From IMG/VR virus record IMGVR_UViG_2579778884_000002: a DNA stretch of 21,910 nt; one strand, 5' to 3'. Position numbers and translations under genes: made by a program. A model generated the notes under the pieces. That model did not search any database. It saw nothing but the letters and a program-made list of their open reading frames with translations, and had not been told where the DNA came from. The stretch comes from a virus. Its lineage: Duplodnaviria; Heunggongvirae; Uroviricota; Caudoviricetes. Numbering within the stretch: position 1 is the first letter of the stretch; each line of letters begins with the position of its first letter. This document shows, piece after piece, positions 1,006-14,170 of this stretch.

Positions 1006-1452
1006 GTTTTACATGCCTTGACTTATCGGATGAAATTCTCTTACTAAATTTAACGGCAGTTTAATAGCCGTACAACTCGTGGTAGCCAGGGAAATATCCC
1101 AGTCGTGGTTAAGGTTGTACTTGACGGCTATTATTTCAACAATGCTTAAAGTGAGAGCTTAAGGTTATGCGTATGTTTTACAGTCCGAGTAGATTCTGAC
1201 CAATAGCTTCTTTGTATAATTCTGTCAGAAATAAATCTTGGCTTGCATGAAGTTTGAGACCTTATCTTGTTTGATTATGAATAATCAATTCGCCATAATT
1301 GTATCACCGGAGCCTGAACAACTCCGGTGACTTCTGCGCTAAACGGGGACGTTTATGCGCACACACAATCCAAACTCTCTTCTCCCTTCACAGATGCAGA
1401 AATGCACCTGCGTTTTTTTGCATCTAGCGTCTGACCTCTGTGGAGGTGAAGC

Positions 1453-1908
1453 GTGAACCTACCACAAGATGGCATCAAACTGCATCGCGGTAACTTCATC
1501 GCTATCGGCCAGCAGATCCAGCCTTATCTGGAGAACGGAAAATGCTTTCGCATGGTGCTTAAACCGTGGCGTGAGAAACGCAGTCTTTCCCAGAATGCAC
1601 TCAGCCACATGTGGTACAGCGAAATCAGTGAATACCTCATCAGCAGGGGGAAATCGTTCGCTACCGCAGCATGGGTAAAAGATGCTCTCAAACACACATA
1701 CCTCGGTTATGAAACCAAGGACCTGGTTGATGTCGTAACCGGCGAAATCACTACTATCCAGTCGTTACGCCATACCTCCGATCTCGATACCGGAGAGATG
1801 TATGTCTTCCTGTGTAAGGTTGAAGCCTGGGCGGTGAATATTGGCTGCCACCTGACTATTCCGCAGAGCTGCGAGTTCCAGCTGCTGCGCGACAAGCAGG
1901 AGGCGTAA
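1453..1908 (+). CDS. ybcN: NinB/YbcN-family protein (DLP12 YbcN-like, DNA base-flipping/recombination-associated)
   Basis: 151-aa ORF, GTG start preceded by GGAGG at 1443-1447. Sequence matches my recollection of E. coli DLP12 YbcN almost residue for residue. Gene order ybcN-ninE-ybcO-rusA is conserved. Confidence 0.85.
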
Positions 1909-2078
1909 TGGCTACACCGCTTATTCGTGTCATGAACGGACACATCTACAGAGTACCAAATCGTCGTAAGCGTAAGCCTGAGCTGAAACCATCCGAAATA
2001 CCAACACTGCTCGGATATACCGCCAGCCTGGTTGATAAAAAATGGTTGCGACTGGCAGCAAGGAGGAATCATGGCTGA
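1908..2078 (+). CDS. ninE: NinE-family protein
   Basis: 56-aa ORF found by manual translation (below the ORF-track size cutoff). Start ATG overlaps the ybcN stop (TAATG). Basic, short, WLRLAARR C-terminal region like lambda/DLP12 NinE. Confidence 0.7.
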   Translation: MATPLIRVMNGHIYRVPNRRKRKPELKPSEIPTLLGYTASLVDKKWLRLAARRNHG

Positions 2079-2361
2079 CTTGAGAAAAGCAGCGCGTGGT
2101 CGGGAATGCCAGGTAAGAATCCCTGGCGTATGTAATGGCAATCCTGAAACGTCAGTACTGGCACATATCCGGCTGGCTGGATTGTGCGGTACCGGTATCA
2201 AACCGCCAGACCTGATTGCCACCATTGCATGTTCTGCCTGCCACGACGAAATCGACCGTCGCACGCATTTTGTTGACGCTGGATATGCAAAAGAATGTGC
2301 GCTGGAAGGTATGGCGAGAACACAGGTTATCTGGCTGAAAGAGGGGGTAATTAAGGCGTGA
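2071..2361 (+). CDS. ybcO: YbcO-family putative nuclease (DUF1364-type)
   Basis: 96-aa product from the ATG at 2071 ([34 protein letters not shown]...), matching recalled DLP12 YbcO. Cys-rich motif CQVRIPGVC...CSACHDE. The ORF-track start at 2032 is an upstream extension overlapping ninE. Confidence 0.85.
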
Positions 2362-2720
2362 ATACTTACTGCATCACACTACCCTGGCCGCCGAGCAATA
2401 ATCGCTATTACCGCCATAATCGCGGACGCACGCATATCAGCGCAGAGGGGCAGGCATACCGCGATAATGTCGCCCGAATCATTAAAAACGCAATGCTGGA
2501 TATCGGCCTGGCTATTCCTGTGAAAATCAGCATTGAGTGCCACATGCCGGATCGCCGTCGCCGTGACCTTGATAATCTGCAAAAGGCCGCTTTTGACGCA
2601 CTCACCAAAGCAGGTTTCTGGCTGGATGATGCTCAGGTCGTTGATTACCGCGTTGTGAAGATGCCCGTTACCAAAGGTGGGAAGCTGGAGCTGACTATCA
2701 CTGAACTGGGAGATGAATGA
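2358..2720 (+). CDS. rusA: Holliday junction resolvase RusA (crossover junction endodeoxyribonuclease)
   Basis: 120-aa ORF, GTG start overlapping the ybcO stop (GTGA). Sequence matches recalled DLP12 RusA, including acidic catalytic residues (DLDN, DD). Confidence 0.9.
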
Positions 2721-2857
2721 TGTTTGAGTCTTATATGGCAGAACGTCTTCGCCGCCGCTGGGTGCGCCTGCGCTTATATCGTTTTCCTAGTTCTGTTTTG
2801 ACCGATTACCGGATACTGAAGAATTACGCCAAAACACTGAAAGGAGCTGCCGCATGA
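2717..2857 (+). CDS. ylcG: YlcG-family small protein
   Basis: 46-aa ORF found by manual translation ([46 protein letters not shown]). ATG overlaps the rusA stop (ATGA). Matches recalled DLP12 YlcG, which follows rusA. Confidence 0.65.
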
Positions 2858-3543
2858 ATACCCAATATTTACAGTATGTCCGCGAGCAACTCATTGTGGC
2901 TACCGCTGATTTGAGCGGAGCAACGAAAGGACAGCTTGAAGCCTGGCTGGAGCATGCACAATTTGATACTGGTACATACAAACGAAAGAAGCCGCGCATT
3001 CTGGATGAGGTAACTGGCAGGATGATTACGCTGGATAATCCGCCGATTTCCGGTAAGCAGTTGTACGCAAAAGGTTCATCCATTGCACTGGTCAGCCAGG
3101 TTGAGTTCTCAACCTCGTCATGGCGCCGCGCGGTTCTGTCTCTCGAAGAACATCAGAAAGCGTGGTTGCTGTGGAGTTACAGCGAAAGTGTTCGCTGGGA
3201 ACATCAGGTCACCATAACGCAGTGGGCATGGAGCGAGTTTAAGACTCTGTTGGGTACCAGGAAAATTGCAGGTAAAACACTGGAACGTTTGAAGAAGTTG
3301 ATCTGGCTGGCGGCACAGGATGTGAAGAACGAGCTGGCAGGGCGTAAGACCTATGAATACCAGGAGCTGGCATCACTGGTGGGAGTGACATCAAAAAACT
3401 GGTCTGAGACATTTACTGAACGCTGGGTTGCAATGAAGCACATTTTTCTACAGCTTGATAGCCAAGCTTTATTGCTTTTAACGAAAACACGTTCAAAACA
3501 AAAGACCATATTTTCACAGCAAGATATTGCAAAACTGGATTAA
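2854..3543 (+). CDS. Putative late-gene antiterminator (Q-position protein), family uncertain
   Basis: 229-aa ORF whose start overlaps the ylcG stop (ATGA). It sits between the nin module and the late promoter/lysis cassette, where lambdoid phages encode Q. It has no cysteine (so no lambda-Q-type zinc finger), is Trp-rich, and does not resemble the lambda or phage 21 Q sequences I recall. Confidence 0.5.
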   Translation: MNTQYLQYVREQLIVATADLSGATKGQLEAWLEHAQFDTGTYKRKKPRILDEVTGRMITLDNPPISGKQLYAKGSSIALVSQVEFSTSSWRRAVLSLEEHQKAWLLWSYSESVRWEHQVTITQWAWSEFKTLLGTRKIAGKTLERLKKLIWLAAQDVKNELAGRKTYEYQELASLVGVTSKNWSETFTERWVAMKHIFLQLDSQALLLLTKTRSKQKTIFSQQDIAKLD

Positions 3544-3573
3544 AAATCATATATTTTATGTAAATCTGATATT

Positions 3574-3602
3574 TTGCCAATGTTGTACGCACTGGCAGTA
3601 AT
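3574..3602 (+). promoter_or_regulatory. Candidate late promoter (pR'-like): TTGCCA -17 bp- AGTAAT
   Basis: Good -35 hexamer TTGCCA (3574-3579), 17-bp spacer, weak -10 AGTAAT (3597-3602). Located just downstream of the Q-position gene and upstream of terminator hairpins and the holin gene. Confidence 0.3.
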
Positions 3603-3610
3603 CCAAATTC

Positions 3611-3647
3611 AAGCCCGAGGTTTAAAGCCTTGGGCTTTTCTGTTTCT
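3611..3647 (+). terminator. Intrinsic terminator-like hairpin (candidate pause/termination element of the late leader)
   Basis: aaGCCCGAGG-tttaaag-CCTTGGGCtt stem (8-10 bp, one G-U pair) followed by TTTTCTGTTTCT. Confidence 0.45.
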
Positions 3648-3724
3648 GAACGGTGAGTAGCCTTCCAACCTACCCCAGCCAGGGTGTCTTCAGCTGTTGA
3701 GTTGATATTGCTTAACCCTCTGTT

Positions 3725-3750
3725 GCCAGCTACATGCTGGCTTTTTTATT
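3725..3750 (+). terminator. Intrinsic terminator (tR'-like)
   Basis: GCCAGC-tacat-GCTGGC perfect 6-bp stem followed by TTTTTTATT. Lies between the candidate late promoter and the holin gene. Confidence 0.5.
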
Positions 3751-3864
3751 CCAGGCTTGCGGGGAGCATCAACTCCGTGCTTTGTCGTTAAATTACCCCG
3801 TGAGCCTGATTTCTGACATTTAACGTCCCGGCCTTTTGTCGGCGGCGAAACATTGGCTATTCAT

Positions 3865-4170
3865 ATGCACGAAAAAGAGAGCCTTGCCGGAGCGTTCTGG
3901 CTCGTTTTGCTGATCATCGCAGGTTGGGGCGGTCTGGTCCGCTACCTGATAGATGTGAAGCAGAGTAAAGCAACGTGGAGTTGGATAAATGCTCTGGCTC
4001 AAATAGTGGTATCAGGATTCACCGGTGTTATTGGTGGCCTGATCAGCATCGAAAGTGGATTCAGTATTTACATGATTCTCGCGACAGCGGGGATTAGTGG
4101 TGCGATGGGTTCGGTTGCACTGACGTACTTCTGGGAACGACTGACAGGGGTGAAAAATGCAAAATCTTAA
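3865..4170 (+). CDS. Holin, class I (three predicted transmembrane segments), non-lambda-S type
   Basis: 101-aa product from the ATG at 3865 with three hydrophobic stretches (LAGAFWLVLLIIAGWGGLV, WINALAQIVVSGFTGVIGGLI, FSIYMILATAGISGAMGSVALTYF) and a charged C-terminus. Immediately upstream of and overlapping the endolysin gene. The ORF-track start at 3853 is a TTG four codons upstream. Confidence 0.8.
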   Translation: MHEKESLAGAFWLVLLIIAGWGGLVRYLIDVKQSKATWSWINALAQIVVSGFTGVIGGLISIESGFSIYMILATAGISGAMGSVALTYFWERLTGVKNAKS

Positions 4171-11422: not shown

Positions 11423-12722
11423 TCTCCCGCATATTGCCAGTATGGCCTTTAATGAGCCGCTGATGCTTGAACCCGCCTATGCGCGGGTTTTCTTTTGTGC
11501 GCTTGCAGGCCAGCTTGGGATCAGCCGCCTGACGGATGCGGTATCCGGCGACAGCCTGACTGCCGGAGAGGCACCCGCGGCGCTGGCGTTATCCGTTGAT
11601 GATGACGGACCACGACAGGCCCGCAGTTATCAGGTCATGAACGGCATCGCCGTGCTGCCGGTGTCCGGCACGCTGGTCAGTCGGACGCGAGCGCTGCAGC
11701 CGTATTCGGGGATGACCGGTTACAACGGCATTATCGCCCGTCTGCAACAGGCTGCCAGCGACCCGATGGTGGACGGCATTCTGCTCGATATGGATACGCC
11801 AGGCGGGATGGTGGCAGGGGCATTTGACTGCGCTGACATCATCGCCCGTGTGCGTGACATAAAGCCGGTATGGGCGCTGGCCAACGACATGAACTGCAGT
11901 GCAGGTCAGTTGCTTGCCAGCGCCGCCTCCCGACGTCTGGTCACGCAGACCGCCCGGACAGGCTCCATCGGCGTCATGATGGCTCACAGTAATTACGGTG
12001 CTGCGCTGGAGAAACAGGGCGTGGAAATCACGCTGATTTACAGCGGCAGCCATAAGGTGGATGGCAACCCCTACAGCCATCTACCGGATGATGTCCGGGA
12101 AACACTGCAGTCCCGGATGGATGCAACCCGCCGGATGTTTGCACAGAAGGTGTCGGCATATACCGGCCTGTCCGTGCAGGCTGTGCTGGATACCGAGGCT
12201 GCAGTGTACAGCGGTCAGGAGGCCATTGATGCCGGACTGGCTGATGAACTTGTTAACAGTACCGATGCGATCACCGTCATGCGTGATGCACTGGATGCAC
12301 GTAAATCCCGTCTCTCAGGAGGGCGAATGACCAAAGAGACTCAATCAACAACTGTTTCAGCCACTGCTTCGCAGGCTGACGTTACTGGCGTGGTGCCAGC
12401 GACGGAGGGCGAGAACGCCAGCGCTGCGCAGCCGGACGTGAACGCGCAGATCACCGCAGCGGTTGCGGCAGAAAACAGTCGCATTATGGGGATCCTCAAC
12501 TGTGAGGAAGCTCACGGACGCGAAGAACAGGCACGCGTGCTGGCCGAAACCCCTGGTATGACCGTGGAAACGGCCCGCCGCATTCTGGCAGTTGCACCAC
12601 AGAGTGCACAGGCGCGCAGTGACACTGCGCTGGATCGTCTGATGCAGGGGGCACCGGCACCGCTGGCTGCAGGTAACCTGGCATCTGATGCCGTTAACGA
12701 TTTGCTGAACACACCAGTGTAA
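11403..12722 (+). CDS. C: Head maturation protease / minor capsid protein C
   Basis: 439-aa product from the GTG at 11403 (VTAELRNLPHIASMAFNEPLML...), matching recalled lambda gpC. The longer ORF-track frame (from 11268) is an upstream extension overlapping B. Confidence 0.93.
12327..12722 (+). CDS. nu3: Scaffolding protein Nu3, nested in-frame in the 3' end of C
   Basis: In-frame ATG at 12327 preceded by the strong SD CAGGAGGG, giving a 131-aa product identical to the C-terminus of C. Another in-frame ATG at 12117 is an alternative start; I am not certain which matches the reference annotation. Confidence 0.6.
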   Translation: MTKETQSTTVSATASQADVTGVVPATEGENASAAQPDVNAQITAAVAAENSRIMGILNCEEAHGREEQARVLAETPGMTVETARRILAVAPQSAQARSDTALDRLMQGAPAPLAAGNLASDAVNDLLNTPV

Positions 12723-14147: not shown

Positions 14148-14170
14148 ATGGCCCTTCGGGGCCATTGTTT
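14148..14170 (+). terminator. Stem-loop with UUCG tetraloop immediately after E (RNA stabiliser or partial terminator)
   Basis: ATGGCCC-ttcg-GGGCCAT perfect 7-bp stem with a TTCG loop, followed by the U-rich TGTTTCTCTG. Starts 3 nt after the E stop. Confidence 0.4.

Follow-up and report, generated by a model that had tools for sequence, protein, structure and literature searches.

Sequence anatomy of a probable late-gene regulatory leader in a phage 82-like lambdoid prophage of Escherichia coli

The late promoter of phage 82 and its Q protein have served for decades as a model for sigma-dependent pausing and antitermination. Transcription from the wild-type promoter (82 pR') begins with AAA, which causes stuttering, and the transcribed region carries a -10-like pause element that starts at +9 and has an extended -10 motif, followed by GCC at +15 to +17 and an AT-rich segment at +18 to +25 (PMC5001585). 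Polymerase pauses at +25/+26, and the natural base at +25 is U (PMC5001585). A one-base insertion at +18 brings a G to the paused end (PMC5001585), from which it follows that +24 of 82 pR' is a G. The Q-binding element (QBE) sits between the -35 and -10 elements (PMC4914094). Short RNAs regulated by antitermination are made by the late promoters of phages lambda, 21, phi80, 82, and P22, and one such product, the pR'-tR' RNA of Shiga toxin phage called StxS, binds Hfq and regulates host genes (PMC7547250). IsrJ is a 74-nt RNA of the Salmonella prophage Gifsy-1 that was detected by northern blotting and whose 5' end was determined by primer extension (PMC2330248).

We analyzed a stretch of 21,910 nucleotides of viral DNA (Caudoviricetes; IMG/VR record IMGVR_UViG_2579778884_000002), here called the window, at the region between its Q and holin genes. 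The gene order is ninB, ninE, ybcO, rusA, ylcG, Q, a 321-nt untranslated gap, holin, lysozyme, and Rz. The Q gene (positions 2854 to 3543, plus strand) encodes an antiterminator of the phage 82 type (Pfam PF06323; E = 2.6e-93), and its protein is identical to phage 82 Q (record X92588) at 223 of 229 positions, or 97%. The DNA from the nin region to the Q stop codon (1200 to 3543; 2.3 kb) is also 97% identical to the phage 82 nin-Q record X92588. These two matches place the locus in the late regulatory region of a prophage resembling phage 82. Positions 3400 to 3950 are 100% identical to Escherichia phage PhiR47_2, and of 5426 complete E. coli genomes, 1212 carry them (790 at a coverage of at least 80%). 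The first gene of the lysis cassette encodes a LydA-like holin (3865 to 4170, plus strand; Pfam PF16083; E = 8.2e-22). RefSeq starts this gene at the ATG equivalent to 3865, and there is an alternative TTG start at 3853, which is used in the PhiR47_2 annotation.

Searching the whole window against Rfam at gathering thresholds returned no curated RNA family, and ARAGORN found no tRNA in it, in contrast to many relatives. An earlier note on this DNA, made from the letters alone, had described a Q-dependent late leader with two intrinsic terminators between Q and the lysis cassette, and the layout is as it claimed. We consider it highly likely that positions 3527 to 3864 form the leader that regulates the late genes of a phage 82-like lambdoid E. 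coli prophage. Such a region is already known in kind: the window contains the phage 82 late regulatory region or that of a very close relative.

The late promoter is TTGCAA-17-TATATT at 3527 to 3555, which overlaps the Q stop codon and has A3562 as its predicted start. In the promoter scan, the -35 element TTGCAA (3527 to 3532, plus strand) lies within the last Q codons and is separated by 17 nt from the -10 element TATATT (3550 to 3555, plus strand). Transcription is predicted to begin at the AAA 7 nt past the -10 element (3562 to 3564, plus strand; +1 = A3562). The earlier note had hedged that the true promoter might lie further upstream than its own candidate, and this is where we find it. 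The two hexamers agree with the consensus at only 9 of 12 positions, and the window as a whole is not enriched in promoter-like matches (11, compared with 14.4 +/- 3.6 in shuffled sequences). A consensus hexamer match therefore carries no weight by itself, and the assignment of pR' rests on homology. When we searched for related leaders using the downstream pause element as the anchor, the -35 TTGCAA was constant in all of them. The -10 element of the relatives, always at fixed spacing, reads TATATT, TATACT, or TACATT. In phage 82 itself, the -35 element and the first 11 spacer bases (3533 to 3543) are identical to those of the window.

The promoter spacer (3533 to 3549, plus strand) occupies the position expected of a QBE, as placed from PMC4914094, and is by analogy the probable Q-binding element. 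The sequence AACTGGATT is retained in Gifsy-1 upstream of isrJ, where the preceding gene is not Q. The 5' end of Salmonella IsrJ as mapped by primer extension falls 2 to 3 nt upstream of the A equivalent to A3562 (PMC2330248); slippage at the AAA that adds A residues would give exactly this offset. A full-text literature search with the initial transcribed sequence returned only unrelated primer matches. The minus strand of the same area holds a promoter-like match at 3580 to 3553 that agrees with the consensus at 10 of 12 positions, and such matches are not enriched. It also holds a CII-type site (TTGCN6TTGC) at 3519 to 3532, which corresponds to the paQ annotation in the phage 434 record; at one match against a chance expectation of 1.76, we do not take the site as evidence on its own.

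Counted from A3562, the initial transcribed sequence is AAATCTGATATTTTGCCAATGTTGT, and every checkable feature of 82 pR' is present in it (the AAA, the element at +9, GCC, the AT-rich segment, G at +24, and U at +25), the comparison beyond position 3543 being with the published verbal description (PMC5001585) and not by alignment. The sigma-70-dependent pause element (3567 to 3578, plus strand) consists of an extended TG at 3567 to 3568, the -10-like hexamer TATTTT at 3570 to 3575 (+9 to +14), and GCC at 3576 to 3578 (+15 to +17). Next comes the AT-rich segment with the predicted pause site (3579 to 3587, plus strand), where 3585 is the G at +24, 3586 the U at +25, and 3587 position +26. The string TGaTATTTT at 3567 to 3575, the GCC, and AATGTTGT at 3579 to 3586 all fit the description of 82 pR'. 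By analogy with phage 82, sigma-70 pausing at +25/+26 and Q-dependent read-through of the terminators are predicted for this locus.

Conservation among relatives follows the same features. Scanning viral contigs with TTGCAAAACTGGATT yielded 120 loci, approximately 90 of which are related leaders, and in these the -35 element, the -10 element, and TGnTATnnT are kept at fixed spacing. The distance from the -35 element to TGnTATnnT is fixed in 56 of 58 distinct relatives, and within the -10-like hexamer neither the A nor the last T ever varies. A second scan, for which the pause element was the sole anchor, came back with the same TTGCAA and with TATATT (or TACATT), again at fixed spacing; the spacers of this set fall into a few discrete classes.

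Downstream of the pause element, both the minimum free energy and the centroid folds contain a leader RNA hairpin (hairpin 1; 3574 to 3598, plus strand) in which UUGCCA at 3574 to 3579 pairs with UGGCAG at 3593 to 3598. It is the counterpart of the first helix in the Rfam isrJ model. Analogous hairpins with other arm sequences occur in further leader classes, and the phage 434 class is without one. From the sequences compared, hairpin 1 would be a recurrent analogue across leader classes and not a case of proven covariation.

The first intrinsic terminator, T1 (3611 to 3647, plus strand; the tR' equivalent), was identified by folding and by a terminator scan. Its stem (3611 to 3637) has 12 pairs and a 3-nt loop, and the tail UUUUCUGUUUCU extends to about 3647, with a U tract that is broken (UUUUCUGUUU). 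The RNA folds at -18.4 kcal/mol (z = -4.1; 0 of 200 shuffles fold as well), and T1 ranks first among 36 terminator-like sites in 20 kb. A hairpin with a U tract stands at the place of T1 in every related leader, built on several different stem sequences. Column-wise covariation for T1 was weak, and RNAalifold run on hairpin 1 plus T1 recovered only the base of T1, both on a MAFFT alignment in which the hairpins of different leader classes lie in different registers.

The second intrinsic terminator, T2 (3725 to 3750, plus strand), was found by the same two approaches and is the center of a pre-holin module. It has a stem of six pairs, five of them G-C (3725 to 3741), followed by UUUUUUAUU, a tail with six U residues; the fold energy is -11.9 kcal/mol (z = -2.5), and the site ranks fourth of the 36. 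Across 45 distinct sequences, the stem is 94% paired and the U tract is conserved, and the main helix shows compensatory changes at 5 of 5 pairs (GCCAGC, CCCGGC, CCUGGC, GCCCGC). Both hairpins were proposed as terminators in the earlier note, which had named their folding energies as a check, and both are present and above chance. That note had also suggested that the first hairpin is a pause or qut-associated element, which does not hold, as the pause and qut signals lie 25 to 50 nt upstream of T1. Terminator-like sites are locally enriched between 2500 and 5000 (8, compared with 2.4 +/- 1.4 in shuffles). More terminator-like hairpins occur in the late operon, for example at 11469 to 11490 and 14148 to 14165.

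The module centered on T2 spans 3681 to 3808 and has two further structured parts. Part A (3681 to 3719, plus strand), defined by covariance model R1, is an AGGGU/ACCCU helix around a hairpin at 3690 to 3705; this inner hairpin is 93% paired across the alignment and has double changes at 4 of 5 pairs. Part B (3752 to 3808, plus strand), supported by covariance and independently by RNAalifold, is a 13-bp helix (3752 to 3764 with 3796 to 3808) that encloses a conserved loop with invariant bases (CAUC...GC.U..U.G.UAAA) and includes the "third hairpin" of the scan (3758 to 3779). Its helix is 88% paired, with double changes at 12 of 13 pairs. By inspection, Part B is without an acceptable -10 element for a promoter and without an IHF consensus for an IHF site, and the start of the sole open reading frame that it could hold is not conserved. 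Of 91 related loci searched with model R1, 53 have the module, and the model found none in E. coli K-12 DLP12 or in phi80; a search of Rfam with the module at E <= 10 gave no match.

How the module is placed among relatives bears on whether T2 belongs to the Q leader at all. The distance from the promoter to the module varies from 107 to 1457 nt, yet the module is always 17 to 49 nt before the first lysis gene, a holin gene; the holins concerned belong to at least five Pfam families. Many relatives carry one to four tRNA genes between T1 and the module, placed directly after T1. Two phages with other late regulators, mEp237 and a P22-like phage, likewise have the module ahead of their holin. 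We lean toward the explanation that T2 is the terminator of a portable module (3681 to 3808) that travels with the lysis cassette and lies outside the Q leader proper, where it would close off cargo such as tRNA arrays before the holin and give the holin mRNA a structured 5' end. The structure itself argues for such a unit: 86.6% of cells in the module alignment pair, against 30 to 44% after the partners have been slid, with covariation scores of 0.335 and 0.04 to 0.07, respectively, and 26 of 32 pairs have changed on both sides, although the pair counts come from an alignment fitted to model R1, which favors structure. In the window studied here, however, T1 and the module have no cargo between them, and T2 would act as a plain second terminator of the leader, as the earlier note had it.

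A broader interpretation is tentative at present. The region 3681 to 3808 could be an undescribed, widespread structured RNA module at the entry to the lysis cassette of lambdoid and P22-like phages, with a role perhaps beyond that of a safety terminator. As part of the same tentative interpretation, it would mark the lysis-cassette entry whatever the Q type or the holin family. Possible roles are that of a 5' processing or stabilizing element of the holin mRNA or that of a regulator of lysis timing.

For the phage 82-type late leader that we prefer as the reading of this locus, the RNA from pR' to T1 is predicted to run from 3562 to about 3639 to 3647, a length of approximately 78 to 84 nt. 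Positions 1 to 75 of the Rfam isrJ model (RF01393) align full-length at 3559 to 3638 (30.4 bits; E = 9.6e-4), a score below the Rfam gathering threshold of 37 bits. The 74-nt IsrJ RNA ends in the hairpin equivalent to T1. As a further tentative point, the virulence-associated Salmonella sRNA IsrJ appears to be the RNA that a phage 82-type late promoter makes up to its leader terminator, sigma-70 pause element included. The IsrJ, IsrK, and StxS literature that we searched does not mention a link between IsrJ and a phage 82-type late promoter.

The likeness to IsrJ also raises the idea that the main product of the locus is an approximately 80-nt trans-acting, Hfq-binding RNA made in lysogens, with antitermination as a second use. 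We regard this as rather unlikely. The Rfam family that is matched full-length, below threshold, is named "isrJ Hfq binding RNA," and deletion of isrJ reduces Salmonella invasion and effector translocation (PMC2330248). StxS is a precedent for a pR'-tR' RNA with Hfq binding and host targets (PMC7547250), and a function of this kind has been proposed for IsrJ. The predicted RNA also has the typical shape of a small regulatory RNA (two hairpins, the unpaired linker AAUCCAAAUUCA, and a U-tailed terminator), and the element is as frequent in complete E. coli genomes as noted above (about 790 of 5426 at the 80% coverage limit). On the other hand, the body of the RNA, hairpin 1 plus the linker, is different from one leader class to the next and absent from the 434 class, which argues against one conserved trans-acting seed. 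A trans-acting function would moreover add to the antitermination mechanism and not compete with it.

As its own candidate, the earlier note had proposed the late promoter TTGCCA-17-AGTAAT, made up, with coordinates corrected by one base, of TTGCCA at 3574 to 3579, a 17-nt spacer, and AGTAAT at 3597 to 3602. These hexamers are +13 to +18 and +36 to +41 of the pR' transcript; TTGCCA overlaps the sigma-70-dependent pause element and its GCC, and AGTAAT shares two bases with the 3' arm of hairpin 1. In sigma-70 promoters, an A at the second position of the -10 element is essential. A late promoter at this pair, with a start near 3609 and T1 at the extreme 5' end of the RNA, is very improbable: the pair does have a 17-nt spacer and 9 of 12 consensus positions, and a "-35-like" element mentioned for an 82 pR' plasmid (PMC5001585) makes a -35-like sequence nearby plausible, but the letters, although present, are no better than chance and lie about 45 bases too far downstream; AGTAAT has a G in place of the essential A (-11), and the promoter scan rejects the pair; both hexamers fall inside the region aligned with IsrJ, whose RNA has its start some 45 nt further upstream; they coincide with the arms of the leader RNA hairpin and are not kept in other leader classes that retain the upstream promoter; and a start at the base of the terminator stem leaves no space for a promoter-proximal pause or for Q loading.

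The sequence comparisons establish the anatomy of the locus, the near-identity of its Q to that of phage 82, the agreement of the initial transcribed region with the published 82 pR' features, and the conservation and covariation among relatives. With pR' at 3527 to 3555 as the late promoter, we propose the following mechanism, whose steps (a start at 3562, the pause, the loading of Q, and the stops at T1 and T2) are what the phage 82, lambda, and IsrJ literature would lead one to expect. A constitutive sigma-70 promoter at the end of the Q gene would fire in lysogens and start at A3562. Retained sigma-70 would bind the TG-extended -10-like TATTTT (+9 to +14) and hold polymerase at +25/+26 (3586 to 3587). 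Without Q, polymerase would escape from the pause and terminate at T1, leaving a two-hairpin RNA of about 80 nt that would be the counterpart of lambda 6S RNA, StxS, and Salmonella IsrJ. Any polymerase that passes T1, or that starts in the cargo DNA of relatives, would meet T2 directly before the holin. Once Q is made, it would bind the promoter spacer and load onto the paused complex. Polymerase modified in this way would resist T1, T2, and later terminators, and the lysis and morphogenesis genes would be turned on.

The practical value of the analysis is a correct annotation (promoter, start, site of pausing, and a roughly 80-nt RNA so far unannotated) for a very common E. coli prophage. We found no described match for two elements: the module ahead of the holin, and the connection of IsrJ to a late promoter of the phage 82 type. 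If confirmed, the module may bear on the silencing of the lysis genes and then on their timing. If the link is true, the level of IsrJ should report the activity of Q and the late promoter and not that of a dedicated small-RNA promoter. Were IsrJ confirmed as such a leader RNA, its expression and the phenotype of its deletion in Salmonella would have to be interpreted differently.

Among the described systems, lambda 6S RNA and StxS are products of constitutive late promoters that are stopped at tR' in lysogens and read through once Q loads at a sigma-70-dependent promoter-proximal pause. They differ from the window in Q family and in sequence. In lambda, the pause is at +16/+17 and the RNA is 194 nt long; StxS is processed from a longer form, and Hfq-dependent targets have been shown for it. 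The phi80 record has the same plan as the window, with a pR' that includes a Q site and two putative terminators before the holin. The first of these, annotated as a "putative rightward terminator" approximately 50 nt downstream of pR', is 94% identical to T1, and the second has the tail UUUUUUAUUCC and lies approximately 40 nt before the holin. In contrast to the window, the Q of phi80 is lambda-like, its promoter is another one, and Parts A and B are absent from it (no R1 match).

IsrJ of Gifsy-1 is like the window in its promoter (TTGCAA-17-TATATT) and in its first 14 transcribed bases, which are identical and include the pause element. It also shares the two-hairpin plan, a similar linker (CAAAUUCAAGCC), a length of approximately 75 to 80 nt, and an end at an intrinsic terminator. 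The sequences of hairpin 1 and of the terminator loop are different, and isrJ follows anrP instead of Q and is itself followed by a tRNA-Arg gene. Phage 434 has a similar Q and the same promoter but a different and shorter leader. That its leader differs despite the similar Q indicates that Q type does not determine the leader beyond about +15. The closest system is phage 82. Past the Q stop codon it was compared with the window by description; hairpin 1, T1, and the DNA downstream may be shared with phage 82 or may be a mosaic replacement as in phage 434. The two have in common a Q protein of 97% identity, the same DNA through the -35 element and 11 spacer bases, all the published features of 82 pR' (AAA, the +9 to +14 element, GCC, G at +24, and U at +25), and a short terminated leader RNA.

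Between the late promoter and the holin gene (3865-4170), we identified a conserved structured RNA module at window positions 3681-3808. It consists of a set of hairpins (Part A), the terminator T2 and a long helix with an invariant loop (Part B). Covariation support for the module is strong, and Rfam holds no family that matches it. In lambdoid and P22-like phages, the module lies 17 to 49 nt 5' of holin genes, and the holins downstream of it belong to at least five Pfam families.

The stretch that separates the first terminator, T1, from the module serves in relatives as a cargo slot, which is occupied by one to four tRNA genes (Asn, Phe, Thr, Arg, Gly, and Met types) or by other DNA. Examples include the related loci L004 (1025-1344) and L005 (about 1016-1250) and many IMG/VR loci. 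The equivalent slot in the window (about 3648-3680) is empty and spans approximately 35 nt. On the other side of the module, a hairpin at 3826-3847 (GUCCCGGCC...GUCGGCGGC) is located just 5' of two possible holin starts, TTG 3853 (as annotated in PhiR47_2) and ATG 3865 (RefSeq). Many holins have a similar dual-start arrangement; among relatives, most holins downstream of the module start with M-x(1-5)-M. Two further strong terminator-like hairpins on the plus strand (11469-11490 and 14148-14165) ranked second and third in a 20-kb terminator scan. Their position within the late structural operon fits a requirement for processive Q-dependent antitermination over its length.

In the related leaders from the second viral-contig scan (L130-L236), phage 82-type late promoters share a constant -35, -10 and initial transcribed region. 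The 17-nt spacer (window 3533-3549), which doubles as coding sequence for the Q C terminus and is the expected Q-binding position, falls into discrete classes (AACTGGATT..., AACCGAACTG..., AAGTCAATT..., and AATAGAACTG...). These classes could serve as markers of Q and binding-site specificity groups.

Two candidate signals on the minus strand overlap this region. A candidate CII-type site at 3519-3532 (TTGCAATATCTTGC) matches the CII-binding consensus TTGCN6TTGC and shares bases with the pR' -35, which is on the opposite strand; the equivalent site in the phage 434 record is annotated as the antisense promoter paQ. The single consensus match compares with 1.76 expected by chance, so the site is no more than a candidate. 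The region's best promoter-like match (TTGGCA-16-TAAAAT, 10/12; 3580-3553) is directed back into the end of Q and overlaps the pause element on the other strand. This match may be due to chance in AT-rich DNA.

The 5' end of IsrJ, a virulence-associated small RNA of Salmonella, has a phage 82-type late promoter and a sigma-70 pause element (TGATAT). The IsrJ region of the Gifsy-1 locus (L006, 1203-1310), the counterpart of window 3559-3638, thus looks like a terminated late-promoter leader, a reading not mentioned in the IsrJ/IsrK papers or the StxS paper searched for it. Directly 3' of the Gifsy-1 Q gene (L006, 360-480), a promoter that differs from that of isrJ (TTGACA-18-TATATT) is followed by a terminator, and this unit corresponds to isrK. 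Gifsy-1 therefore has a tandem pair of late-promoter-like leader modules: isrK follows Q, and isrJ follows anrP.
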